Of a stretch of DNA of 52,467 nt, positions 11,980 through 35,548 are shown piece after piece. Source of the stretch: a virus (Duplodnaviria > Caudoviricetes); the IMG/VR virus record IMGVR_UViG_3300033153_006994, positions 1 through 52,467 of that record. One strand, written 5' to 3'. Position numbers and translations under genes: made by a program. Within the stretch, counting starts at the first letter, position 1, and each line of letters begins with the position of its first letter. Under the pieces are notes generated by a model. That model had not been told where the DNA came from. It ran no database searches and was given only the letters and a program-made list of their open reading frames with translations.

Positions 11980-13011
11980 TTACGTGTTAGCTCTGATTCC
12001 AAATTGTGCGTCATTAACGCCGGAAGGTGTCCAAGCAGCAACAGTGTCGGGGTCTTGCTCTTCAACCCTTATAGTTGTAACATAAGATGTTGACGTGATA
12101 GTATCCGCTGTACCGGGGTATATTGTAGTCCCTGTCTTGATCAAGTTGCTCAAATCCATGGACCCCGCTGTTACCCTTGTCTCAGTGGTGATTTGAATAC
12201 CATCCACAGAAGCAGTAACTCCAGGAAGATTGTCGTAGGTATACAAGTCATCATCGGCATCCGTGCTTGTCTCATTGTATGTAGTATCTTCATCCAAAAG
12301 ACCACCATCATTGACGTTCTCGTAATTGCTCCCCGCACTAGGAGTCCAATCTGTACTATCACCAGCACCATCAGGATCAAGAGCGATAACTTTCCTGTTC
12401 CCAAGAAAATCATTGTTCACTGATCCCGAACCATCCAAGAAATAGAGATCATCAAACTTAACTACAACACCATTATATACGGCATCAGCAAGTCTAAATG
12501 CTGTGTGGTAAGCATTTGAACCTGGCTGTGTGTCTTGATTTGTTAAGGAAATAAAAGAAGTCCCATTGACTTTCACATCAACAGTTCCCACCGTATTACT
12601 TGTCAGCACTTTTGCTTCAAAATAAAACCAAGTATCAAAGGGGACCGCCGATGTTGAGGTTGCCAAAGTAATCGTATTCATCTTAGCAGTAATATATCCA
12701 GCCGATGTAACTGAGAAATTTACACCTAAATTTGCACCTTCGTACAATTTAATAATGTGAGTGTCAACAGTACACAATGGGATATAAATTGCCATACCGA
12801 TAATACATGTATCATCAGTTGTTAAATGGGGACTTTGTAAGTAACCTAGAGGATCAACTTCAAGACAATTCCCATATCGACCAGTCTCTATATCCATAAA
12901 TGCTTCTCTATTGACGATAGGATATTTACGACCAATGATCCCCGTTGGTGAAGGAGCACCTCCAATAGTAGTTCCAAAACCTTCAAAACCTTCAATCCAA
13001 AGTAATGCCAT
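11980..13011 (-). CDS. LamG/concanavalin-like virion protein, tail copy
   Basis: Start MALLWIEGFEG at 13011 after GGAG; TWFYFE...VKVNG...FDDLY lectin-like motifs; paralog of 26313..27344. Confidence 0.7.
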   Translation of the reverse strand: MALLWIEGFEGFGTTIGGAPSPTGIIGRKYPIVNREAFMDIETGRYGNCLEVDPLGYLQSPHLTTDDTCIIGMAIYIPLCTVDTHIIKLYEGANLGVNFSVTSAGYITAKMNTITLATSTSAVPFDTWFYFEAKVLTSNTVGTVDVKVNGTSFISLTNQDTQPGSNAYHTAFRLADAVYNGVVVKFDDLYFLDGSGSVNNDFLGNRKVIALDPDGAGDSTDWTPSAGSNYENVNDGGLLDEDTTYNETSTDADDDLYTYDNLPGVTASVDGIQITTETRVTAGSMDLSNLIKTGTTIYPGTADTITSTSYVTTIRVEEQDPDTVAAWTPSGVNDAQFGIRANT

Positions 13012-13030
13012 GAGAAGGCTCCTTATATGA

Positions 13031-13075
13031 AAAATGGTGACCAGGTTCGGGTCAAGACCCGAAGCCTGACCACCA
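13031..13075 (-). terminator. Intrinsic terminator after the 203-aa fibre subunit gene
   Basis: TTCGGGTC-aa-GACCCGAA stem with extended pairing, then ATTTTT on the minus strand. Confidence 0.6.
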
Positions 13076-13090
13076 CGAGGGAGAGATTCG

Positions 13091-13702
13091 TTAGGCACTG
13101 ACTGTGTATGTGACCTTCAATTGATCAGCACTGAGAACAGCCACATCACCAGAGAACAGAGCAGTCGCCCAAAGTTTATGTGCTGTACCAGCAGTGTGAT
13201 CACCCTTGACATTGGCATTAGTGCCTGCACAAAGGAAGAGACCTTTAACAGTACCGGAACCGGTAATGTCGAAAACCGTGACTGTATTGTTGGTAATCGA
13301 TTGAGCAGAAGCCGCAGCTTCATCCCAAACAGGTCGAGTCGTCGCACTGTCACCATTACCTGGATCAGTATACAGCTTGAATTCATCCCAACCGTTGCCC
13401 GCCTGATCGATGTCATCATACAGATCAGTACCATTGAGAGCCGAGAAGTTGAGATCATCAATCAGACCCATATACCAAGTGGTCATTGCGGCTACCGCAT
13501 GGAAATGAACATCGAGCAAGTGATTCTTGCCTTCGTTGACAATCCCATTGGGAAAGTGGTACTCATTGATCCTCTGGCCATTTCGCCAATGCTCAACTAC
13601 GTAATGACCACCGAGATCATTAAGATCATTGTGGCCACCGGTTTGGTTCTTGATTACTGTGGCTACCGCACTTTGACCAAGTTTCATTTCAGAGATAGAC
13701 AT
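13091..13702 (-). CDS. Putative high-copy fibre/decoration subunit
   Basis: Start MSISEMKLGQSA at 13702 after GGAG; NGIVNEG, WYMGL, DQLKVTY motifs typical of phage fibre building blocks. Confidence 0.65.
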   Translation of the reverse strand: MSISEMKLGQSAVATVIKNQTGGHNDLNDLGGHYVVEHWRNGQRINEYHFPNGIVNEGKNHLLDVHFHAVAAMTTWYMGLIDDLNFSALNGTDLYDDIDQAGNGWDEFKLYTDPGNGDSATTRPVWDEAAASAQSITNNTVTVFDITGSGTVKGLFLCAGTNANVKGDHTAGTAHKLWATALFSGDVAVLSADQLKVTYTVSA

Positions 13703-13765: not shown

Positions 13766-16700
13766 CTAACGTGACGAACCTCGACGTTCTTCGCGACGGA
13801 TGGCTTTCATTACCTCACGAGCAACGATTGTGGGTTTACCAGCCCCACTAACATTGATATCGCCTACATTGGTATTATAGGTGTCCCCACCATTATTATG
13901 GAAAACTGGTTGTTGACCAGCATTCATCGCTTGCAATTGGGAGAAAAATCGTTGTGACGATCTTGCATTGGTAACATATTCTCCAGCAGAGAGCATTGCA
14001 GGAATGGTATCCATTCCACGACCGCCATTGGCAAAGTATCCGACTTGCCCACCCATTGATTGTTTAACGAATGGATTCCGAATGATAGGACCTTGCGCAG
14101 TTGAAACAGCCGCACTGACACTTCCAAGAGTCCCCAGCAACTGTTGAGCCTTCCCATTGGCTGCTTCAAGTCCAGAAGACATCTGTTGAATACCTAAATT
14201 GGTGTTACCAATTTCAGCAGTAACAGCCCCTTGAGTACCTTGCAGTTGCATTGCTGCTTGAGCAGTCTGTTGGACTTTCGTTGGCTGTTCAGCAACAGTT
14301 TGGGAACTTTCCTGTACAGCTTGAGTCAGAGCCTTTTGGGACTGTGTAGCGGCGTTTGTCTTAGACTTGTTGGCATCAATCGCTGCTCCAATCTGCTGGT
14401 TTGCTTTTGCAATTTCGATAGCTTTTTGAATTTGTGCATCTTGCAGTTGTCCAGACTTCAGCATATTCGAGATTTGCAATTCCTGTTGACCCACACCTAA
14501 TCCTGCCCCGGCAGCTTCTTGCAATGTTGGGAGTTTGATAATGGCATCATTCAATGCTTGCAAAGCACCCTCTGCATGAAAACCACGGGAAGCAAGATTT
14601 TCCAATTGTTTGGTCAGAACTTGAACTTGTTCTGGCTCAAACCCCTCCTTGAGTCCCTTATTGATACTCGCTAGGATAACCTCAAAATCAGCAAATTGTT
14701 GCGGCTTGTCACCAATTTCCTTGATTGCTCTTCCGGGTCCTTTTGATAGAGCTTCAAAAAATTCACTGAAGGCTTCACCGGTAGTAACATCCTGGAGACT
14801 AACAAGGGTCGCCCTAATCTTTTGCATCTCGTTATCAAGGGCTGACTGAGCCTGCTTAGCAGCATTGAGTGCAGTGGCTTGCTCTTCCACAGTTTGGGTG
14901 AACTGCCGCATAACCTCGTCAACTTGTTTTGGAGTGTCTATCGCCAACCCTCGCTCTGCGGCGAAAAGTTGAACTTCGACTGGAATCTTTTGGAAGAAAT
15001 CATCAGCAGCATCACGAATCATCCCAAAGATTTCTTGCATGTTCGATGGGAGGGTCATGATTGTATCAATCTCGACCGTTATGTCTCGTGCCTCGATTTC
15101 TTGAAAAAGTTTCCTTACGAGAGGATCAGCACTTTGAGCGAACTCTTCAACTCCTTTCGTGTACGTCTCAAGGTAATTGTCAACAGCTACCTGGGCTTCC
15201 TTTGCCAACTTGGCTTGATCTTCAGGCGTCAAGTCCTTATCTGAAGCTGCCTCCTGGGCTTCAGTCATCTTCTTGATGAGAGAATCCAAATCAGCCCTAT
15301 ATGCAATAATCCCACGTCCAGCTTCAGCTAAACCTTTTGCCCCTTCTTTAGTGACAATTTTTCCTTTCTCAGTTGCTTTCACATAACGATCCTGACGGAT
15401 AGCCAAGAATTTCGATAGATCAGCAGCAATGCGAGTTTCGTTGTTAGACTCTGCAATCCCGAACGCTTGCTCATGGAGAGCAACGAATCTACTCTGAGCA
15501 GCCCTTGCTGCATCAAAATCAGCTTCCGCTGCCAATTTTTGTGCTAAGACATTCTCTTCAGCAGCCTTCTTTCTCAAAAGAGAGATTTGAAGAATAGGAT
15601 CATCCTTGGCAGCTTTGATACCTCGTTGGAACAGGATATCTTGGACTCTTTTAGTCGAGCTTGCTTGCTCCTGTGTAGCACGAGCTAATGCCTTATCGAC
15701 TTCAGCGGCAGCTTTCGTGATCACTGAGATCGCTGCATCCACAGGACCCATCATACTATCGATAGCCCACTGTGTACTCGCAGCAATTACTTGGTTGGCA
15801 TCCTCAGCAGCATTAGCTGCTGCTATGAATTCCTTTCGAGCAACGGCGGCATACTGAGCCAAGAGTTTAGCCCGCTCTGCGAGTGCATCCTTTTCATTTT
15901 GAAGTTCCTTTGTGAGAAGGTCTGCATGAGCCTTGCTACGTTCATCATATGCTCTTGTGATATGCTCGACTTCACTTGTAACCGCGCCTTCAAATCTGCC
16001 AAATACGTTAGCAAGACCAGAAAGGAATTGCTGCCCAAAAACATCAATGAAGGCGTTCTTGAGTTTATTCACTGCCTTGGTAACTTTTTCAGCATCAGTC
16101 GTGATGATCAGATGATACGCTTTATCATAAACCTCACCAAGAGCATCTTTCTGTTCCTTCATTGATTTGTTGAAATGACCTAACTCATCATCAGCCAGAC
16201 CTAAGACACCGGTGAGACCTCGAATACGTGGGAAAAGTTTAGCGATTGCCGCCGCACTTCCATCTGTCGTAGCCGCGATTGCTTTGATAGCCTCTTGAAG
16301 ATTATGGGCTTCAAAAACTTGTTCACCAGTCTCAAATCCCAACTCTCCCATCGCATCTTTCATAGCCTCAGTAGGCTTCAAGAATGCTTGCATCGCGCCT
16401 CGAATCTGAGTGACTACCTTGTCAGTTTTGAGTCCTTGAATAGTGAGTGTAGCTACTGCCGCATTCAATTCCTCCATGGAGATTCCAAGTTTATAAGCAA
16501 TAGGATTGATTGTACCCATACCCTGTGCTAACTCTTCAGCCCTGGTACGACCAAGTTTGATCGTATTAAAGAACTTGGCGGCGACATCTTCTGTCTCAGA
16601 GACTTCCTTTCCAAAGGCATTCAAAGTACCAGAAAGGAGGTTGACCGCTGTAGTCATATCCGTCTTGGTAATCTTGGAAAACTTAGCGGCTGAACCCAGG

Positions 16701-17356
16701 AAGGCTTCAACATCCTTCTCAGTAGAGGCAATCTGATTCGATACTGTTTGATAAGCGGCTTCTGTAGCATCCGCAAGTTCAACATTAAAAGTATTCGAGA
16801 CACGTAAAACCATGTCTTCGATCTTTTCCAGACCACCCAATCCACCTGCGATTGTTCCGATTTCCGCTACTGCTTTTTGGAAAGCGATGGCTTCAGTAAC
16901 AGCATCACTGAGTGCATTTCTGATTGCATTAAGAGTACGTACAATAGCTTGAGTCATGATGACTCGACCCAAAGTCTCCCAGGAAATAGTCCATTTTTTC
17001 GTTTTCTCAGCAGCATCATCGGCTGCCTGACCCGTCTTTTTGCCAGCAGAACTTGCCGCCGCGCCAATCTTATCCAATGCAGATGCCGCTTGTGTTGCAG
17101 CCACATTTGTAGCATCCAGTTTGGTTACACTGGATTGCTTATTCAAATTGGCCATCTGAGTGGCAGCACTACTGGCAGATGTCTTCAATCTCTTGAGGAC
17201 ACCATCGGTCTTGTCAGCCTTCGCATTGAAACTCCCCAGAACCTTTGTTGTGCTACTTACAGCCGACTTAAAGGATCGCATGACTCCATCGAGTTGGTTC
17301 AAAGTCTCAATCGCTTGAGCAGCATTGAAGCCTAATGTTTGTTTGATTTCGGCCAT
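13766..17356 (-). CDS. Tape measure protein (TP901-like core)
   Basis: 1196 aa, Ala/Gln-rich helical; core motifs (AAYQTVS, LGISMEEL.AA.A.LT..G); C-terminal DTIPAMLSAGEYV. Confidence 0.93.
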   Translation of the reverse strand: MAEIKQTLGFNAAQAIETLNQLDGVMRSFKSAVSSTTKVLGSFNAKADKTDGVLKRLKTSASSAATQMANLNKQSSVTKLDATNVAATQAASALDKIGAAASSAGKKTGQAADDAAEKTKKWTISWETLGRVIMTQAIVRTLNAIRNALSDAVTEAIAFQKAVAEIGTIAGGLGGLEKIEDMVLRVSNTFNVELADATEAAYQTVSNQIASTEKDVEAFLGSAAKFSKITKTDMTTAVNLLSGTLNAFGKEVSETEDVAAKFFNTIKLGRTRAEELAQGMGTINPIAYKLGISMEELNAAVATLTIQGLKTDKVVTQIRGAMQAFLKPTEAMKDAMGELGFETGEQVFEAHNLQEAIKAIAATTDGSAAAIAKLFPRIRGLTGVLGLADDELGHFNKSMKEQKDALGEVYDKAYHLIITTDAEKVTKAVNKLKNAFIDVFGQQFLSGLANVFGRFEGAVTSEVEHITRAYDERSKAHADLLTKELQNEKDALAERAKLLAQYAAVARKEFIAAANAAEDANQVIAASTQWAIDSMMGPVDAAISVITKAAAEVDKALARATQEQASSTKRVQDILFQRGIKAAKDDPILQISLLRKKAAEENVLAQKLAAEADFDAARAAQSRFVALHEQAFGIAESNNETRIAADLSKFLAIRQDRYVKATEKGKIVTKEGAKGLAEAGRGIIAYRADLDSLIKKMTEAQEAASDKDLTPEDQAKLAKEAQVAVDNYLETYTKGVEEFAQSADPLVRKLFQEIEARDITVEIDTIMTLPSNMQEIFGMIRDAADDFFQKIPVEVQLFAAERGLAIDTPKQVDEVMRQFTQTVEEQATALNAAKQAQSALDNEMQKIRATLVSLQDVTTGEAFSEFFEALSKGPGRAIKEIGDKPQQFADFEVILASINKGLKEGFEPEQVQVLTKQLENLASRGFHAEGALQALNDAIIKLPTLQEAAGAGLGVGQQELQISNMLKSGQLQDAQIQKAIEIAKANQQIGAAIDANKSKTNAATQSQKALTQAVQESSQTVAEQPTKVQQTAQAAMQLQGTQGAVTAEIGNTNLGIQQMSSGLEAANGKAQQLLGTLGSVSAAVSTAQGPIIRNPFVKQSMGGQVGYFANGGRGMDTIPAMLSAGEYVTNARSSQRFFSQLQAMNAGQQPVFHNNGGDTYNTNVGDINVSGAGKPTIVAREVMKAIRREERRGSSR

Positions 17357-17853: not shown

Positions 17854-18052
17854 GGTCAGTAATTCTCCAGGTAATCACGGATACTGAACCTCTGAGCAGG
17901 TATTGTTAGAGAAGAGACTATAACCATTGTTCTTGTTCTCGGTTTCGTTCTGCTAACATGTTAGGGTTTCACTTCCTTGCAAATCCCATAATTGTATTGC
18001 TTGGGCAGGTCTCCACTATTGTCCATAATCAATAGTCCTATCAATGGTTCTA

Positions 18053-18295
18053 TCAATGGTGTTTCTTGGAAGAGGAAACCATAGGACAACCCATGGTTTC
18101 CTTTTCGTCATATTGGCAAATTTGATCATATGCAAGAATCGCTGCCTGTGTTTGTACACCATTGTCATCCCATATGGGATTGACACCTGGAGGGAGGATG
18201 CCTATTCGGAGGCAGGCTCTCCAGATGGCGTACTCTCCGGTGCGATATTTAGGCCAGAGGATTCGCTTGGAACCGGAGCCTGCCCACGTAGAAAA
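18053..18295 (-). CDS. Tail assembly chaperone -1 frameshift extension (gpT-like)
   Basis: Open -1 frame from TCT TTT CTA reading STWAGSGSKRILWPKYRTGEYAIWRACLRIG...KKHH-stop at 18053. Confidence 0.7.
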   Translation of the reverse strand, partial: FSTWAGSGSKRILWPKYRTGEYAIWRACLRIGILPPGVNPIWDDNGVQTQAAILAYDQICQYDEKETMGCPMVSSSKKHH

Positions 18296-18732
18296 GACTC
18301 GCGCGCCTGTTCGAGTTTATCCTCGTCGAGACAATTTGCTTGGAAGACGAGATTTTGGATACGATTGACTTCAACTTGATTGAAACCAGAATCGATCAAT
18401 TCTTCGCTCCATCCCAACCATGTTGATGGCTTATCGGCATCAACTTTTTCCCATTCAATATCACTAGGTTCCAGCGATGTGATGACTAACCAGGCAAGAC
18501 GCTTTCGTCCGTAGATTTTCATCATGTCCTTGTAACCAGGCTCTTCAACGTGATCCACCCAGCCTTCTTTCGGTTTGTGAATTCTGGGTGCCGTAGGCTC
18601 AGGACAGAGCTTATTGAATGAATCATAATTCGGAACACCAACCGCACGAAAAACAATGCTCTTTTCCCCACGGGGAAGCACAAGAATTTCTTCTGTTGAC
18701 ATTGTCTTCGGATCTACTCCACCAATTTTCAT
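18202..18732 (-). CDS. Tail assembly chaperone (gpG-like)
   Basis: Directly downstream of tail tube genes; GGAGG SD; overlapping -1 ORF. Confidence 0.75.
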   Translation of the reverse strand: MKIGGVDPKTMSTEEILVLPRGEKSIVFRAVGVPNYDSFNKLCPEPTAPRIHKPKEGWVDHVEEPGYKDMMKIYGRKRLAWLVITSLEPSDIEWEKVDADKPSTWLGWSEELIDSGFNQVEVNRIQNLVFQANCLDEDKLEQARESFLRGQAPVPSESSGLNIAPESTPSGEPASE

Positions 18733-18799: not shown

Positions 18800-19837
18800 T
18801 TACGATTGTGACGTTCGCGTCACTGTCGGTTGAATAGCGTTACATCGACCAGAAACAGCAACGGATGCTTCACCCAGATCGGGTTCACGACTTTCCGAAC
18901 GGAAGTCCGGGAATACTGTTGTTTCAATTTCCTGTGTGGTGCAAATCGGGGTGTGAACTACTTCCACGTCTATGGCATAGGGCTCACACGGATCAGCAGA
19001 ACTGGAGACCCATTCAGAAGCCCCGCCGATTTTCTTCAGGGCGTCCATTGGCGAAATTTCTTCACCTGTACCTGTTGTGATATACTCATAAACAAACTCA
19101 AGACTGAGATCAAGTGGAATTTGATCCCCGGCGCGAACAGTATCGAGAACCCCTCGGTCGAGATCGTATTCGTATTCATTCGCTTCGGTGTAGGTCAGAT
19201 TACCATCGCCGATTTTGATTTCGAGTTGTTGTGGAAGAAACGTGATCACATCACTGTTTGCGGGCAAATCGCCAGCATCCAACGCCGGTGTGAATGTTAG
19301 TTCCCAGGAGGTCGCTCCAGGACGTTTCACAGTGATATTTTCAGCACTGGAAGCATTCGTCAAACTTGTCCCGTCAATAGTCATCAATGCCACATCGGTA
19401 GCAAGGTACTGTCCACGATATTCGATGTCGAATGGACCCAAAGATGCACCAGTAACAATTACATCACCAGCATCGATACTAGTCAAGCCTTCCAAAGCTG
19501 TTTGAATTTCAGATGCTGTAGCATCATAGTTAATAGCCCCAGTGGGACCTTCACCATCCCAAGACAAGGTAAATGTACCCGCTGTGGGCGTATCCAGATC
19601 AAGTGTCTGAACTTCGTTGGAGTTGACAGCGGTAATCGTGAAAACCGTGTCAGCCACGGTATCAATCGAAAAGCGAACGCCAACAGGGACAATCGTGGTT
19701 GAAGCGGGTGTGCCGGATAACGTATCAATTTCCAGGGTCGTATTCGCCCCGGCAATTGATGTATCGTCGACCAGAGCCGCTCCAGCCCAGCCATCTCGAA
19801 ATCGGATGACACAGTTCTTCAATTCGATGCGCGCGAT
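18800..19837 (-). CDS. Tail tube protein 2 with larger inserted domain, ATC start
   Basis: Highly similar C-terminal half to 19849..20607; begins ATC GCG CGC ATC GAA TTG AAG aligned to MARIELK; AAGGAGGT SD 5 nt upstream. Confidence 0.85.
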   Translation of the reverse strand: MARIELKNCVIRFRDGWAGAALVDDTSIAGANTTLEIDTLSGTPASTTIVPVGVRFSIDTVADTVFTITAVNSNEVQTLDLDTPTAGTFTLSWDGEGPTGAINYDATASEIQTALEGLTSIDAGDVIVTGASLGPFDIEYRGQYLATDVALMTIDGTSLTNASSAENITVKRPGATSWELTFTPALDAGDLPANSDVITFLPQQLEIKIGDGNLTYTEANEYEYDLDRGVLDTVRAGDQIPLDLSLEFVYEYITTGTGEEISPMDALKKIGGASEWVSSSADPCEPYAIDVEVVHTPICTTQEIETTVFPDFRSESREPDLGEASVAVSGRCNAIQPTVTRTSQS

Positions 19838-19848
19838 GATACACCTCC

Positions 19849-20607
19849 TTACTGGGCAGTACGGGTGATTGTGGGTTGAGTCACATTACAACGACCTGAC
19901 ACGGAGATGGTAGCTTCGCCAAGATCGGGCTCACGACTCTCAGAACGGAAATCCGGGAAGACAGTCGTTTCAATCTCTTGTGTCGTACAGATCGGCGTAT
20001 GGATGATCTCTATGTCAACAGCGTAAGGCTCACACGGATCAGCGGACGAACTTCGCCATTCGGTGGCTCCACCGATTTTCTTCAGAGCATCCATTGGGGA
20101 AGTGGTTTCACTTGTGCCCGTAGTGACGTATTCATAGACGAAGTCCAGAGACACATCCATGGGTACTTGGTCACCAGCCCGAACGGTATCAAGAACGCCT
20201 CGATCGAGATCGTACTCGTACTCATTCGCTTCGGTGTAGGTAACATTGCCGTCACCGATCTTGATCTCCAATTCGATAGCCTGGAAGGTAATCACACCAC
20301 CATCGACATACGTACCAGCACCGAGTGCGGGCGTGAAGACAATGTTGGTTGTGGTAGCCGAACCATCAGAGGGCGTTCGCTCAGTAACGGTATGGACTTG
20401 TGTGGTGTCGGTTTCACCAGCAACCAAGAACTTCGCACCAATCGGAACCACATCGGTTCCAAGACCACCTGCATTAAGTACGAGAGTGTCGATGTCGAAC
20501 TCGGTGTCGGTCACAACAGGGGCAGTGGTTGGTTCATTGATAGCTCCGGTTCCACTAAGACCGTCTTTCAGCTTAATTACACAGTTTTTGAGTTCGATGC
20601 GAGCCAT
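19849..20607 (-). CDS. Major tail tube protein 1
   Basis: Position between tail terminator and chaperone; AGGAGG SD; tube-like beta-rich sequence. Confidence 0.85.
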   Translation of the reverse strand: MARIELKNCVIKLKDGLSGTGAINEPTTAPVVTDTEFDIDTLVLNAGGLGTDVVPIGAKFLVAGETDTTQVHTVTERTPSDGSATTTNIVFTPALGAGTYVDGGVITFQAIELEIKIGDGNVTYTEANEYEYDLDRGVLDTVRAGDQVPMDVSLDFVYEYVTTGTSETTSPMDALKKIGGATEWRSSSADPCEPYAVDIEIIHTPICTTQEIETTVFPDFRSESREPDLGEATISVSGRCNVTQPTITRTAQ

Positions 20608-20741
20608 AGGGTAAACCCTCCTAATTAAATGTTATTGGGGTTTTACCCCTTTAGTTGAAAAGAGAACACAGTCGATTTTGCCCTTCGTCGGGCATCACGT
20701 AAAGTTGAATAGTTAATCCCTAAGCCTTGTGGCGGCGTCTT

Positions 20742-21647
20742 TTATGCTTCCATACTCGACGCCATTGATAGCGACTTTTTTCGCTTTGGGTGGTAATCAA
20801 AGACATTTGAACCAACTTTTTTCCTTGCACTCCACATAGTCATATAACAAACTTTTAGAGCCTTAGCTGCCGATTTGATACAATTATACTTAATTCCATT
20901 TACAGTTAATATGATTGCTTTTGGATGTTTCCCACATTGCATTGAAGGTTTAGATTTTCCTTTTCTAATCTCACTTAATTTCTTTCGGTGTTCAAGCGAG
21001 AGAGTTTTCCCTTTATGGGCTTCACTCATTTTTCGTCGAGCTTCATCAGAATGAAGTCTTTTCTTTTTACCCTTATGAGCATCCCCAATTTTCTTTCGAT
21101 GTTCAAGCGAGAGAGTTTTTCCTTTATGGGCTTCACTCATTTTTCGTCGAGTCTCGTCTGAGATGTTTCTACCAGCCTCACTCATTTTTCGTCGAGTTTC
21201 TTCAGAAGGATTTTTGTGCCCTTCAGATATTTTACGACGAGTCTCTAATGAATGAGTTTTCCCTTTTTGAGCTTCACTCATCTTCTTCCGTGTTTCTTTT
21301 GAAGTAATCTTTCCCCTATGAGCCTCACCTATCTTACGACGGGTTTCTATTGAAGGTCTTATTCCTGTCGAACCTTCTCCACCTATCGTCAGATTGTAAC
21401 CTTTAGGTCCGAATGTTTCCAATATACGAATGGCTCGAATTTCCATTTCCTTAATGTATTCTTCAAGACCCTTACAAATAATCCTAAATTCAAAGGCTTC
21501 CAGACCATATTTTTTGATGGCTCTTTTCACAAGGAGAGAACCATACCCACTTTTATGCTCTTTACACCTTCTTTCAAAGTTATTGGTTATCCCCACATAC
21601 ATCCGACCGTTTACATGATTGGTAATTGTGTAAAGATAAAGGAACAT
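20742..21647 (-). CDS. GIY-YIG homing endonuclease with NUMOD3 repeats
   Basis: YLYTITN...MYVGIT..RR...H core, GYN motif, many [12 protein letters not shown] repeats. Confidence 0.92.
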
Positions 21648-21650
21648 GCA

Positions 21651-22142
21651 CTAATCCTTTGAAAGAAACATTTCATATCTGGCGTCAATTACCGATTGTT
21701 TCACCCTATCAGTCGGGTCCACTTTGCCAAAGTGTATCACTCGAACAGTATCATTTTTCCCCGAGCGAGGAACCAAACAACCCAGGTAACTATCATCATC
21801 TTCCACTCCGCTACCATACTTGTAGATGAGAATTGCTCTGTCCATGGCAGAGTGAAAGAGACCCGCGTTTGTCAGGATCGAATGTCGGTTCTTCTGTTTT
21901 CCATCGAAACGACTTGTCAGAACTACATTAACGTCCATTTGGATGCGATACTCACCAGACATTTCCTTAGTGAAAGGACCACTGATACGAATCTCAACAT
22001 GATCTGTTGCTTCTGTGAATGTATCCGTCTCGTCATCAACCCCTTCAACGATAGCTTCGATACCATTGGCATCAGCGACTGCATTCAAGGTCTTTGCGAT
22101 AGAGGCAAATATCCACCTTGCCCAATTGGGGTTAGCTGGCAT
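21651..22142 (-). CDS. Tail terminator-like protein
   Basis: Size and position immediately before the tail tube genes. Confidence 0.55.
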   Translation of the reverse strand: MPANPNWARWIFASIAKTLNAVADANGIEAIVEGVDDETDTFTEATDHVEIRISGPFTKEMSGEYRIQMDVNVVLTSRFDGKQKNRHSILTNAGLFHSAMDRAILIYKYGSGVEDDDSYLGCLVPRSGKNDTVRVIHFGKVDPTDRVKQSVIDARYEMFLSKD

Positions 22143-23005: not shown

Positions 23006-24397
23006 TTAGCCAAGCACAACACACGCGAGGTCGGTGTCGAGGACAGCCAGACCAGCGAGCATGTCACAGTTGACCTGAGTACCACCAGCGGATTGGCTGT
23101 ACTGCATCGTAACACGCATCGAGATGCCATTGTAGCTGGCCACACCACCGACAGCGCCAGTGCCCGCTCGCGGAAGGGCGAGAGGTCGTGTGATCAATGC
23201 AAGGGCTTCGCGATGGAACGCAAGATTCATGTTACCTTGGGGACCGGGGAAGGCAGCCGCACCGTCAGCAACGGCGACTTCCAAAGGACGGTCAAGGATA
23301 AGATCGTTACCATCGATCTCGATAACCGTGTAAGTCCGACGACTAGCACCAGTACCAAAAGCACAGAGTTGCCCGATATTCCAGTAAGCAACATTGTCCA
23401 TACCAATTTTCTTGGTCCAACCAATATCATACGTACCAGCAGTTGGGTGATTGACCGTATCTGACGTATAAGCAGTCACGACCGCGCCAGCGCCAGTCGC
23501 ATACTTCAGAGGCTCATTGAGAGTGAAATCCGTGGTCGCACCAGTGATAGCTGTGCAGTAGGTCGGCTGATCGTTACCGGCAACATTGATGAACTCACCA
23601 ACGACGGTGGCACCAAGAGTACAGGCAATCACACCAGCGTAACCGGCAGCATGGGCATTCGTTGCTGTACCAGCAATCGAGGTGCCAGTGATAAGACTCG
23701 GCACGTTCTGACCCATCCAGGTATTGAACCCGTAGATTTGACCCAGTTTGGCCATCTCAAGGGCTGTTCCATCATCACCCCGCTCATTTGCCTTCACGAA
23801 GATATCATTCTTCAGCAAGGCAGTTTCGCTAGATGAAGTCAAGAGCAGATGTCGTTGTCGATCCATTGGAGCCAAGTTGTCATTCAACACTTGGCGAGCA
23901 TCCAGCACAACCTCATTAGAAGTCGCGGAGGGAAAATTCTCCAACCGACCAACACGATTCGACACGGTGCCGAAGAACTGTTGAACCTGACCTGTCACGG
24001 AACGATCAACACCATTAGCAATGCTGAGCATGGCGGGTCGCAGGTAAACCTGCACCAAGTCTTTGAAAGACAGGCTTTCCTCACCATCATAAATGGTGAA
24101 GGGCTGAGTGAACCACTGATCCAAGACCACTGGCACATTCGTGCTCACGGCATCCTGATAGCTCAAAGTGTCGCCATCAACCTTACGGGCGATCTTGAAC
24201 TTATTAGGTCGACGAGTGTTGACTACATCGCCGTATCGTTGAACTTCATTCTCGAAGTCACGGTGGACCAAGTGAGCCATCACCATGTTTTCTTCGAGAA
24301 TCATCAAACCTTCATTCGCCCAATGTTCAGGGACGAAGGCATCATTGTCATTGGCGAAACAGGTCACTTGGGCCACACAGAGGTAAAGCGAATTCAT
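23006..24397 (-). CDS. Major capsid protein (P22 coat-like, with inserted domain)
   Basis: PEHWA...LVHRDFENE...GDVVN, G.IYGF and NLAFHREA.AL.TRPL motifs; follows scaffold, followed by terminator. Confidence 0.9.
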   Translation of the reverse strand: MNSLYLCVAQVTCFANDNDAFVPEHWANEGLMILEENMVMAHLVHRDFENEVQRYGDVVNTRRPNKFKIARKVDGDTLSYQDAVSTNVPVVLDQWFTQPFTIYDGEESLSFKDLVQVYLRPAMLSIANGVDRSVTGQVQQFFGTVSNRVGRLENFPSATSNEVVLDARQVLNDNLAPMDRQRHLLLTSSSETALLKNDIFVKANERGDDGTALEMAKLGQIYGFNTWMGQNVPSLITGTSIAGTATNAHAAGYAGVIACTLGATVVGEFINVAGNDQPTYCTAITGATTDFTLNEPLKYATGAGAVVTAYTSDTVNHPTAGTYDIGWTKKIGMDNVAYWNIGQLCAFGTGASRRTYTVIEIDGNDLILDRPLEVAVADGAAAFPGPQGNMNLAFHREALALITRPLALPRAGTGAVGGVASYNGISMRVTMQYSQSAGGTQVNCDMLAGLAVLDTDLACVVLG

Positions 24398-26312: not shown

Positions 26313-27344
26313 CTAGATGGCCTTGATACCAAATTGTGCGGCATCAATCTCGGCAGGTGTGTAGGGATTAGATGTGTCAGGATTCACTTCACTAATAGAA
26401 GAACAAGTTACATAATCCGTTGAAATGATCGTTCCGCATGACTGCGCATTTTCTGTCGAACCTGATTTGGTGATATTTTGCAATTCCATACTCCCCGAGG
26501 TAGCTTTCACCTCAGTTATGATTTGGATACCATCAATCGAAGTCATATTGATCGCAGGATCATAGTTGTACAAATCCTTATTTGTTGTTGTACCCGTTTC
26601 AACATATGAAGTATCTTCATCCAATTCCATTTCGTTGATTCGGTCATAATTAGTTCCTGAATCAGGAATCCATTGTGTAGAATCACCGGCAGCATTAGGT
26701 CGAATTGCGGAAACTTTGCGAATCCCGAGGAAGTCATTATTGATTGAACCAGAACTATCCAGAAGATAGAGATCATCATATAGGGTCGTTACATTACTGC
26801 TTCCTAATCTGAAAGCCGTAGCATAGGCATGAGAACCTATTTGTGTATCAATGCCAGAAAGAGAAAGCCAATTATCAGTGTTAATCACCAAATCAACAGT
26901 ACCTGCTGACGCATGGGTCAATACCTTTAACTCAAGATAGTACCAAGTATTGGAAGATAATGCCAAAGCAGAGGTGCCAAGTAAAACATTATCCAAGTAA
27001 ACTGAAAGAGTGCCATTCGTATTGACACGGATATTTACAGCTAATGATGTACCATCATAAAACATCATCAATTTACTAGGCAAGACGCTTGGAGTTGAAA
27101 GTATCTTGATTGCTGCACCAAATACCAGAGTATTATCCGTAGTCAAGTCAGGACTTTGGATATAACTCTCAGCACCAATGGCATAATAAATTGCTAAGCA
27201 AAATCCATTTCTTCCATTTTGAATCTTCATCTCCGATTCACGATTGATAACCGGATACTTACGACCAATGATACCTGTTGGTGAAGGAGCATTCCCAATA
27301 GTAGTTCCAAAACCTTCAAAACCTTCTATCCAGAGCAAAGCCAT
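26313..27344 (-). CDS. LamG/concanavalin-like virion protein, neck copy
   Basis: Full-length paralog of 11980..13011 (MALLWIEGFEGFGTTIG.APSPTGIIGRKYP ... AQFGI). Confidence 0.75.
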   Translation of the reverse strand: MALLWIEGFEGFGTTIGNAPSPTGIIGRKYPVINRESEMKIQNGRNGFCLAIYYAIGAESYIQSPDLTTDNTLVFGAAIKILSTPSVLPSKLMMFYDGTSLAVNIRVNTNGTLSVYLDNVLLGTSALALSSNTWYYLELKVLTHASAGTVDLVINTDNWLSLSGIDTQIGSHAYATAFRLGSSNVTTLYDDLYLLDSSGSINNDFLGIRKVSAIRPNAAGDSTQWIPDSGTNYDRINEMELDEDTSYVETGTTTNKDLYNYDPAINMTSIDGIQIITEVKATSGSMELQNITKSGSTENAQSCGTIISTDYVTCSSISEVNPDTSNPYTPAEIDAAQFGIKAI

Positions 27345-27353
27345 GAATATCTC

Positions 27354-27875
27354 CTAACTGATACGGGCAAGCACAATGGCATCGTCTTCACGAAGAAACG
27401 GTCTTAGCCAACGCCAAGCTTGCGAACTTGGAATGCCGTTAATGATATGTTCAATGGGAACCTGATTCCTGTTATAAGATGTTCTCACCGCTGCGTAACT
27501 CTGACTGATGATCCCAAGCGTCTCTAATTCGATCTCAGGGTCTTTTCCATCGAGTAATTCATGGGCAATCTCATAGGTCGCTCGTCGAATAGGTTCTGGA
27601 ACTACTGAATCGGCTCCACGTGGGAATTCCATATCTTGAGCCGCTTCGGCTTCACGAATCTCTCCATCCGAGGCATGGGGATTTTCTGCCAAGAGTGCGT
27701 AAACAGTACTCTTTTTGCCCTTATAATTCAACGCATCAATGATGACTGAAGCTGCCCAAAGAGCTTTGGGACGATCAGCGGGGGCCGCACTGGACCACGC
27801 TCTCTCATGAAGGCGTAGAGCAAAGTATTCTTCCGCTTCTAAGAGATTTCCATAATATGCACTGGTAATGGACAA
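27354..27875 (-). CDS. Head-tail adaptor (DnaT-like family)
   Basis: Y...EAEEYF...W...KAL..A...ID...YKG...Q..EFPR...PE.I..A.YE.A pattern. Confidence 0.75.
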   Translation of the reverse strand: MSITSAYYGNLLEAEEYFALRLHERAWSSAAPADRPKALWAASVIIDALNYKGKKSTVYALLAENPHASDGEIREAEAAQDMEFPRGADSVVPEPIRRATYEIAHELLDGKDPEIELETLGIISQSYAAVRTSYNRNQVPIEHIINGIPSSQAWRWLRPFLREDDAIVLARIS

Positions 27876-27886
27876 GAATCACCTCC

Positions 27887-28189
27887 TTAAACGGCGAGCC
27901 ACGAAAAACCTTGTGCGGCGGCGTCAGCAACAACGTAGACTTTGCTCAAATCGTCAATCGGAATCCTGACCGATTCACCGGCATCCAGCAAGAAACCTGT
28001 TGTGGTCGATACTGTGTTAATCCCCACAAAAATGTTGTTTGTATTGGTCAAGTCAGCCTTGACTTCAACATACTTTTTGACGGGAGTTTCAACAGTGATA
28101 AGAGCAACAACAGGAGTTGTTCCTACTGTGCCATGACCAGTTTTGAATTCGCTCGCAGCTTCATTTGCGATACTTACATAGCCACCCAT
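27887..28189 (-). CDS. Small beta-sandwich virion protein
   Basis: N..NIFVG...TGFLLDAGES pattern; AAGGAG SD; follows portal. Confidence 0.55.
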   Translation of the reverse strand: MGGYVSIANEAASEFKTGHGTVGTTPVVALITVETPVKKYVEVKADLTNTNNIFVGINTVSTTTGFLLDAGESVRIPIDDLSKVYVVADAAAQGFSWLAV

Positions 28190-34765: not shown

Positions 34766-35548
34766 TTAGAGTTGGACTGCGACCGCTTCGGGGATCAGGT
34801 CCAGGTTCAGGGGATCAATAGCTTCAGTAATGATGCTGGAAATCGACGTCGTGGTAGATACATCAGTCGTGGTAATCTTCAAAGGAAGACCATCAGTCGG
34901 ACGAACGTAGTAAACGCTTGTACCAGCCGCATAGATAGTTCCCACAGTGACACCACCCCAGGTAATAGCGAGAGCACCACCACCTCGTGTAGTCTCGACA
35001 ACACCCACTGTCGTTGTACCTCCAGTCAGTGATGTACCATCACCAACCAGCATATCAACATTTGTTCCGGCAAGAGTTCCTTGGAATTCAATAATCCAGT
35101 CAGTTGCTGGACCTGGACCACCTGTTACAGCGACAAGATTGATACCAGTCAACAATTCCAATGCAGACTTAACATCCGCTGCGGCGGCATCAAAGGCAAT
35201 TCCCGCTGTTGTTTCAGTACCGAGAGATAAAGTGAATGTTCCACCAGAGCTTGCGTTGTCAATCGAAACCGTCTGAACTTCGTTGTCACCACTCAAAGTA
35301 TCTACGACAACAGTAAGTTTGTGTAGATGACCTTCCAGAACACCCGGAATGTATCGCTCGGCGTAACTTCCGGCAGCAACAGCAGACGCATCCAGGAAAG
35401 TAGCTGCAATGGTAAAGTTGCTAAGAGTCCACTTGGAATCAACAGCAACAGGGACAGGAGTGACCACAGGTCGCATCGGAACACCGTGTACATCGTCGCC
35501 AGCATCCCATTGTGTCTCGTAGGTAATCGTCATTGTCATTGTCCTCAA
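34766..35548 (-). CDS. Virion decoration-type protein with NEVQT...GGTFTL domain
   Basis: Contains the same domain as the insertion in tail tube protein 2. Confidence 0.65.
   Translation of the reverse strand: MRTMTMTITYETQWDAGDDVHGVPMRPVVTPVPVAVDSKWTLSNFTIAATFLDASAVAAGSYAERYIPGVLEGHLHKLTVVVDTLSGDNEVQTVSIDNASSGGTFTLSLGTETTAGIAFDAAAADVKSALELLTGINLVAVTGGPGPATDWIIEFQGTLAGTNVDMLVGDGTSLTGGTTTVGVVETTRGGGALAITWGGVTVGTIYAAGTSVYYVRPTDGLPLKITTTDVSTTTSISSIITEAIDPLNLDLIPEAVAVQL

Follow-up and report, generated by a model that had tools for sequence, protein, structure and literature searches.

An AUC codon behind an extended Shine-Dalgarno sequence as the probable start of a paralogous phage tail-tube gene

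How does translation of a virion structural gene begin when the codon in the position of its paralog's ATG is ATC? The question is raised by two tail-tube genes transcribed from the minus strand of IMG/VR virus record IMGVR_UViG_3300033153_006994, the 52,467-nt stretch of DNA analysed here (the window), which is estimated to be about 51% complete. Gene 1 (19849..20607) encodes the short paralog of 252 aa, opens with ATG and ends with TAA (19851..19849), and its product begins MARIELKNC. Gene 2 (18800..19837, with its stop at 18802..18800) follows it and encodes the long paralog, which is 345 aa when counted from ATC; the two products are 58% identical over 254 aligned columns. The interpretation favoured here is that gene 2, a tail-tube paralog carrying a surface domain, is very probably translated from the near-cognate AUC at 19837..19835. 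That the gene starts at this ATC, rather than at a downstream TTG or by readthrough, had been put forward in an original prediction made from the letters of the record, and it is strongly supported by comparative evidence.

Re-reading of the minus strand confirms the coordinates and the description of the junction in that prediction throughout. The gene 1 codons ACT GCC CAG are followed by TAA, GGAGGTG, TATC and ATC, and then by GCG CGC ATC GAA TTG AAG; the letters at 19851..19835 are TAAGGAGGTG-TATC-ATC. The perfect Shine-Dalgarno (SD) sequence that had been described is present as AAGGAGGT at 19850..19843, followed by 5 nt (GTATC) and then by ATC, and the full 9-nt match, AAGGAGGTG (19842..19850), leaves a 4-nt spacer, TATC (19838..19841), ahead of the proposed initiation codon ATC (19835..19837). 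The first two bases of this extended SD are the last two of the gene 1 TAA, and the final three bases of the spacer are another in-frame ATC. Alignment with the 252-aa product places the proposed codon where the paralog has its ATG, and the codon, which begins 14 nt beyond the T of TAA, is out of frame with that stop. In the gene 2 frame the closest upstream stop is 16 codons away, and no ATG, GTG or TTG occurs ahead of the TTG at 19822.

The SD of gene 2 is exceptional in its own genome. Paired with a generic anti-SD motif it has a duplex energy of -15.0 kcal/mol, which ranks second among the 98 open reading frames (ORFs) of at least 100 aa, for which the median is -3.75 kcal/mol; gene 1, which has AGGAGG at 20617..20622 followed by 9 nt and ATG, scores -10.7 kcal/mol. 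The motif AAGGAGGT occurs in the window more often than expected by chance (4 copies against 1.41 expected, with 9 of 100 shuffles reaching 4), and the longer AAGGAGGTG is present in only two copies, each preceding a long ORF whose start codon is weak (ATC in gene 2, TTG at 27875). We note that the second of these sites (27354..27888, minus strand) precedes a TTG-started gene of 173 aa (27354..27875) that matches phrog_477 (head-tail adaptor Ad1) and has the strongest SD scored, at -17.3 kcal/mol, such that the two longest SDs in the window are both paired with weak start codons.

The relatives used for comparison come from a scan of viral contigs, which gave 14 loci, and a scan of metagenomes with an alignment, which gave 79 more, several contigs being present in both collections. 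Tube-gene N-termini were located by a motif search and an ORF filter, and identical sequences were collapsed. Long paralogs that stand behind AAGGAGGTG plus 4 nt were found 31 times and make up 25 distinct junction sequences of 99 nt, the window included; one relative with a TTG start (L026) was excluded from this set as its flank is too short. The start position is occupied by ATC in 12 junctions, ATA in 10, TTG in two and ATG in one (L030), and thus by ATC or ATA in 22 of the 25, whereas the original prediction had named ATG in all close orthologs as an outcome that would speak against it. All 25 share the sequence GGAGGTG without change. Among the relatives the 4-nt spacer takes many forms (tgat, tata, tacc, tgct, tact, tatt and tgcc among them) and so is not under coding constraint, and variation with a period of three, mostly at third positions, begins at the codon directly after the ATH (ATA, ATC or ATT) codon.

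Gene 2 and its relatives have diverged far enough for this pattern to be informative. Pairwise synonymous divergence (dS) exceeds 1 and the ratio of nonsynonymous to synonymous divergence (dN/dS) is 0.07-0.15, which indicates purifying selection; a third base under no constraint would have become random rather than staying at C or A. ORFs of 339-345 aa are intact in every complete close relative. Among the 22 distinct junctions with ATH, 20 lack any ATG, GTG or TTG in frame between the ATH codon and the stop that precedes it, and the first canonical start downstream of it lies anywhere from codon 6 to codon 61, being at codons 13-61 in half of them (11/22). Residues R3 and L6 are invariant in 49 sequences, and a beta-strand is formed by residues 2-5 in the AlphaFold model. 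A quick tree of 53 complete long paralogs, from which truncated genes were excluded, places the rows with a strong SD in one well-supported group that shows at least five changes between ATC and ATA and one ATG, with L053 as a separate, long-branched ATC row. Relatives outside this clade have shorter or imperfect SDs and an ATG start.

The association of the unusual codon with the long SD is exclusive. When the start contexts of short and long tube genes are taken together (100 distinct ones, L094 having been dropped as a motif hit without a plausible start), ATH is found in 21 of the 29 in which the SD is at least 8 nt and in none of the 71 in which it is weaker; the Fisher p of 2e-15 for this pairing is overstated as the rows are related. 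The window and the loci together, duplicates included, comprise 442,265 bases and contain 43 AGGAGGTG sites, of which 36 precede tube genes that start with ATC (17 sites), ATA (14), TTG (4) or ATG (1); one further site precedes another gene with a TTG start, and six have no long ORF after them. Comparison of the sequences thereby demonstrates where the start lies, that AUC or AUA is conserved there, that the SD does not vary and that AUH is paired only with the extended SD. In codon position, conservation and SD, gene 2 agrees with the class of AUH starts with extended SDs that includes infC, pcnB, ccpN and cvfC1, and it would represent a case of this known mode of initiation in the unusual setting of a virion structural paralog.

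The assignment of both genes to the tail tube rests on predicted folds and on gene position, as the tube core of neither paralog matches a tail-tube family of Pfam or PHROGs by sequence. The AlphaFold model of the gene 2 product, built with a 49-sequence alignment, has a predicted local distance difference test score (pLDDT) of 90 and a predicted template modelling score (pTM) of 0.81, and Foldseek matches it to the T1 tail tube (9l0f_G; E 2e-3, probability 0.99), to a structure of phage Patience (8giu_1; E 6e-3) and to the tubes of diffocin, PVC and AFP, which are contractile injection systems, with probabilities of up to 1.00. The gene 1 model is poorer (pLDDT 77.8) and its Foldseek matches are weak, being mostly tail tubes with that of P74-26 as the best (E 0.047). 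These models point to a tail tube for both genes, with the expected fold recovered for gene 2 and only weak matches for gene 1. On the minus strand the terminase large subunit gene is followed by those for the portal, scaffold and major head protein (23006..24397), a number of small genes, a GIY-YIG/NUMOD3 endonuclease gene (20742..21647), the two paralogs, a pair of small ORFs and the gene for the tape measure protein (13766..17356). The tube genes (18800..20607) thus have the location expected of such genes, after those of the head and ahead of the tape measure gene. The long paralog therefore resembles known siphophage tail tubes (T1 9l0f, Patience 8giu and P74-26 8ed0) in fold and gene position; unlike those, the tube core has no Pfam or PHROG tail-tube family match, and the fold match of the short paralog is weak.

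The two paralogs differ by an inserted surface domain of about 95 residues (residues ~71-165 of gene 2; 19343..19627, minus strand), which is absent from gene 1. A phmmer search against the PDB matches it to the tail-tip-cage repeats of Bxb1 gp23 (E 8e-11) and to residues 310-391 of the Bxb1 major capsid protein (E 5e-4). Foldseek matches range from 31 to 32% identity over 102-107 columns with root-mean-square deviations of 2.8-3.4 (for 9d9x_Ha, 32%, 107 columns and 3.4), and the insert also matches phrog_5042 and phrog_10909. Residues 71-159 are thus alike in sequence and fold to the Bxb1 surface domain, found both as the C-terminal domain of the major capsid protein and in the gp23 tail-tip cage repeats (PDB 9d9w, 9d9x and 9d93); Bxb1 carries this domain on its capsid and tail tip, whereas here it is inserted in a tail-tube protein. 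Decorated tube subunit is a fair description of the gene 2 product because of these matches. A tblastn search of a phage collection returned 52 records, all on the insert alone (23-39% of the query, at less than 60% identity), and since the matches are so confined this collection offers no annotated close relative for comparison of the start. A second copy of the Bxb1-like domain is present far from the tail genes in a 260-aa ORF (34766..35548, minus strand), which shares 40% identity with residues 64-182 of the long paralog and has matches to phrog_10909 and phrog_2839.

In the mechanism proposed, the perfect 9-nt SD (AAGGAGGUG) would set AUC in the P site at optimal spacing, 6 nt past the GGAGG core, and the initiator would presumably be formylmethionyl-tRNA, by analogy with other AUH starts, giving a protein that begins Met-Ala-Arg-Ile-Glu-Leu-Lys. 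The weak codon may well cut output below the level of AUG and leave the decorated subunit scarcer than the plain one, and we lean slightly towards this view. The original prediction had tied the ATC start to a low stoichiometry of the decorated subunit; the former holds on comparative evidence, and the latter is plausible and unproven. The near-absence of ATG (1 of 25 junctions) in spite of saturated synonymous divergence supports selection against a strong start.

Several observations weigh against scarcity of the decorated subunit. The weak codon may be offset by the SD of gene 2, one of the strongest in the genome. The short paralog (~250 aa) itself starts at ATC behind (A)AGGAGGTG plus 4 nt in three relatives (L006:2003, L023:1731 and L039:1695), and in two others (L027 and L057) an SD with TTG precedes both paralogs. 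As these signals stand before the short paralog too, the arrangement is not specific to the decorated subunit, and in these five relatives it cannot on its own yield unequal amounts. The long form is moreover the sole tube gene in eight relatives (L055, L056, L059, L060, L069, L079, L088 and L090) and the short form the sole one in four (L073, L075, L094 and L096), all twelve with about 2.5 kb of flank on both sides, and either form is apparently able to build a tube alone. We note that the short-gene junction of L006, L023 and L039 resembles a copy of that of the long gene, which suggests exchange of the 5' ends of the paralogs, and that these three relatives together with L027 and L057 have an endonuclease-like ORF upstream.

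These observations leave room for a second account of the same AUC start, in which the extended SD, alone or together with coupling to gene 1, makes up for the codon and the paralogs are made in comparable amounts, for example for mixed rings. Tail tubes of T5 and P74-26, met here only as Foldseek titles, consist of fused tandem tube domains. An SD that is second of 98 and stronger than that of gene 1 would be expected under compensation, as would the matched signals on both paralogs, whether strong SD with ATH or strong SD with TTG, and the TTG starts of the short gene in many relatives; stronger SDs that offset weaker start codons are also a known tendency (PMC5622118). Two considerations make this account possible but rather unlikely. 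AUH codons with extended SDs in Staphylococcus aureus still give only some 10-30% of AUG output (PMC13009471), and a requirement for full output would favour ATG, yet ATG is found at a single junction even though ATA to ATG is a single transition.

The scarcity of the decorated subunit, if correct, could also be linked to translation of gene 1. The UAA of gene 1 is embedded in the SD of gene 2, with a fixed gap of 11 nt to the start in 23 of the 25 junctions, and because of this placement termination-reinitiation coupling is proposed, in which some initiation would come from ribosomes that have just terminated on gene 1, tying together the amounts of the two subunits; this is offered tentatively. 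More doubtful still is a further step, in which a UAA within a 9-nt SD, followed by 4 nt and AUH, would constitute a dedicated termination-reinitiation cassette. The SD would then hold ribosomes that finish the plain tube gene and a set fraction would restart on the weak codon, such that the ratio of decorated to plain subunits would be fixed without a programmed frameshift. As it also stands before the short gene in L006, L023 and L039, the cassette seems to shift from the 5' end of one paralog to that of the other.

For the position of the start itself, some features of the junctions count against AUC at 19837..19835, or at least against giving the comparative counts their face value. ATT is absent from the start position (0 of 25), which no model considered here explains, even though only one transition separates ATT from ATC and exchanges between ATC and ATA have been repeated. 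The close relative L030 has ATG behind the same SD, and ATG is therefore tolerated. The counts lack phylogenetic independence, and the cassette could have been spread by recombination. Lastly, an in-frame ATH is also found directly upstream (19840..19838) in 18 of the 25 junctions, by hand count, and from the window alone this upstream ATC and the proposed one cannot be told apart.

The most conventional alternative is translation from the TTG at 19822 (19820..19822), the first canonical start in the frame, which would give a protein of 340 aa as a standard gene caller annotates it and would agree with the use of TTG by other genes of this phage group. This codon, however, behaves as a leucine codon, with TTG in just 13 of the 25 distinct junctions and one of CTG, CTC, CTT and TTA in the remaining 12, and it is read here as Leu6; the original prediction had named a start at this TTG as a result that would overturn it, and the comparison does not bear such a start out. 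The codons ahead of it, codons 2-5 (Ala-Arg-Ile-Glu), vary mostly synonymously with a period of three, and the TTG lies 19 nt past the end of the SD. Starting there would remove the first beta-strand predicted in the model, and in the 11 of 22 relatives whose first canonical start is at codons 13-61 the equivalent choice would delete conserved N-terminal strands. A TTG start is accordingly improbable.

Initiation at the neighbouring upstream ATC, or at both ATCs, is equally improbable. The frequency of an in-frame ATH there is its chief recommendation, but the position is occupied by GAT, ACC, GCT, ACT or GCC in the remaining 7 of the 25 junctions; it is also too near to the SD, only 1 nt after the paired SD and 3 nt after GGAGG, and the relatives that have TTG or ATG variants have them at the downstream position.

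It is highly improbable that gene 2 has no independent start and that its product arises as a fusion with that of gene 1, through a -1 frameshift or other recoding near the TAA. Relative to gene 1, gene 2 occupies the -1 frame, which is open for 16 codons upstream, and programmed frameshifts are known in tail genes, as in gp17.1* of SPP1 (PMC6316719). However, no X_XXY_YYZ slippery heptamer is evident by eye in the last codons of gene 1, where no scan was run, and the frame relation is not conserved: an extra A in L030 and L052 (TAAAGGAGGTG) brings the stop in frame with gene 2, and L053 has a TGA in the gene 2 frame five codons upstream. The junction thus shows neither a slippery site, as judged by eye, nor the constant frame relation of an SPP1-type frameshift. 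The codon before the ATH is also not conserved, and an invariant SD at the spacing of a start codon is what an independent start predicts.

An error of sequencing or assembly as the source of the ATC, or decay of gene 2 as an unexpressed duplicate, is conceivable for a single metagenome-derived record but is scarcely credible, since ATC or ATA at 21 of the 24 other distinct junctions excludes a base-calling error, and every complete close relative has an intact ORF evolving at a dN/dS of 0.07-0.15.

Other devices at the junction were considered and dropped. A bypass of the T4 gene 60 type, with take-off and landing sites, does not fit as the codon before the TAA varies (CAG, CCG, CCA or ATT) and has no match after the SD. 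RNA structure was rejected, as the minimum free energy of the junction (-34.8 kcal/mol) is not better than that of shuffled sequences (mean -39.98 kcal/mol, z=+1.34) and the junction is if anything the less structured. A phage-encoded tRNA that reads AUH was ruled out, there being no tRNA gene in the window.

Non-canonical starts of this kind have been described for a small number of bacterial genes. In S. aureus the AUU or AUA starts of infC, cvfC1 and ccpN carry extended SDs, and in reporter fusions, for which cvfC1, ccpN and citZ were tested, AUH gave about 10% and up to 30% of AUG output (PMC13009471). In Escherichia coli AUA, AUC, AUU and CUG gave 1-2% of AUG, the product of an AUC-started reporter carried an N-terminal Met, and the AUU starts of infC and pcnB are the two confirmed AUH cases named in the same source (Hecht preprint). 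Gene 2 resembles these in having a conserved near-cognate AUH that is always accompanied by a long SD at the proper spacing. It differs in that the bacterial genes encode regulators or an initiation factor, whereas gene 2 is a virion structural gene, in that its codon is AUC or AUA and never AUU, and in that the UAA of the upstream gene is embedded in the SD.

Among phages the closest functional parallel is SPP1, in which a +1 frameshift at CCCUAA gives gp17.1* with a C-terminal FN3 domain, at a gp17.1:gp17.1* ratio of about 3:1; the extra domain is thought to aid adhesion and the fixed ratio is set in translation (PMC6316719). Both phages have a plain tube subunit and a form with an extra surface domain. 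SPP1 achieves this with one gene, a frameshift and a C-terminal domain, whereas here there are two paralogous genes, an internal insert and a weak start as the proposed control of the ratio.

Some of the neighbouring genes also merit comment. The homing-endonuclease-like GIY-YIG/NUMOD3 gene (20742..21647, minus strand) lies between a gene of 163 aa (21651..22142) and gene 1. It is missing from many close relatives (L005, L011, L012, L016 and L017 among them), in which the tube gene directly follows the 163-aa gene, and other relatives have a diverged copy with 35-53% identity; the type of ribosome-binding site and the start codon of the short tube gene appear to follow its presence. Downstream of the tube genes, the -1 frame is open for about 100 codons (17854..18260, minus strand) beyond a 176-aa ORF (18202..18732) and overlaps its 3' end, which is where the G/GT frameshifts of tail chaperones occur; a scan for canonical X_XXY_YYZ heptamers at the end of this chaperone-like ORF found none in frame. 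Two minus-strand ORFs of 343 and 372 aa (26313..27344 and 11980..13098) both match phrog_2448, which is of unknown function (E ~1e-35), one being in the head module and the other in the tail-tip module.

The wider family extends into genomes of cellular organisms. A first scan of genome contigs with a single protein as query found no relative, and a scan with an alignment found 20 loci (L098-L117) with 35-61% identity to the tube protein. The records are mostly titled Planctomycetota (Thermoguttaceae, Pirellulales, Planctomycetaceae and Aureliella), with a few titled Anaerolinea, Saccharibacteria, Zixibacteria or archaeon, and several of the loci lie on contigs of megabase size, suggesting that they are prophages and pointing to a host phylum for this wider family. 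Where the N-terminus could be recognised in these loci the start is ATG (10 of 11), and they serve here as host context only; we infer from them that the phage of the window may infect Planctomycetota. In two more distant relatives (L094:2501 and L102:2501) TTT or TTC (Phe) is aligned with the ATG, and as L102 has an in-frame ATG four codons upstream, a short N-terminal extension is indicated there rather than a non-canonical start.

Experimentally supported AUH starts in bacteria are few, with two named for E. coli (Hecht preprint) and a handful described for S. aureus (PMC13009471), and a keyword search of open-access text, with supplementary files outside its scope, found no report of such a start in a phage tail-tube gene. 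Gene 2 provides a clean comparative example of AUH in a phage virion gene. It also illustrates that gene callers restricted to ATG, GTG and TTG will mis-annotate this gene family, placing the start at the TTG at 19822 here and up to 61 codons into the gene in relatives. The arrangement of the two paralogs suggests a possible route by which siphophages could mix plain and decorated tube subunits without a frameshift, and the cassette, if it does operate as proposed, would be a frameshift-free counterpart of SPP1 gp17.1 and gp17.1* in phages whose wider family sits in genomes of Planctomycetota.

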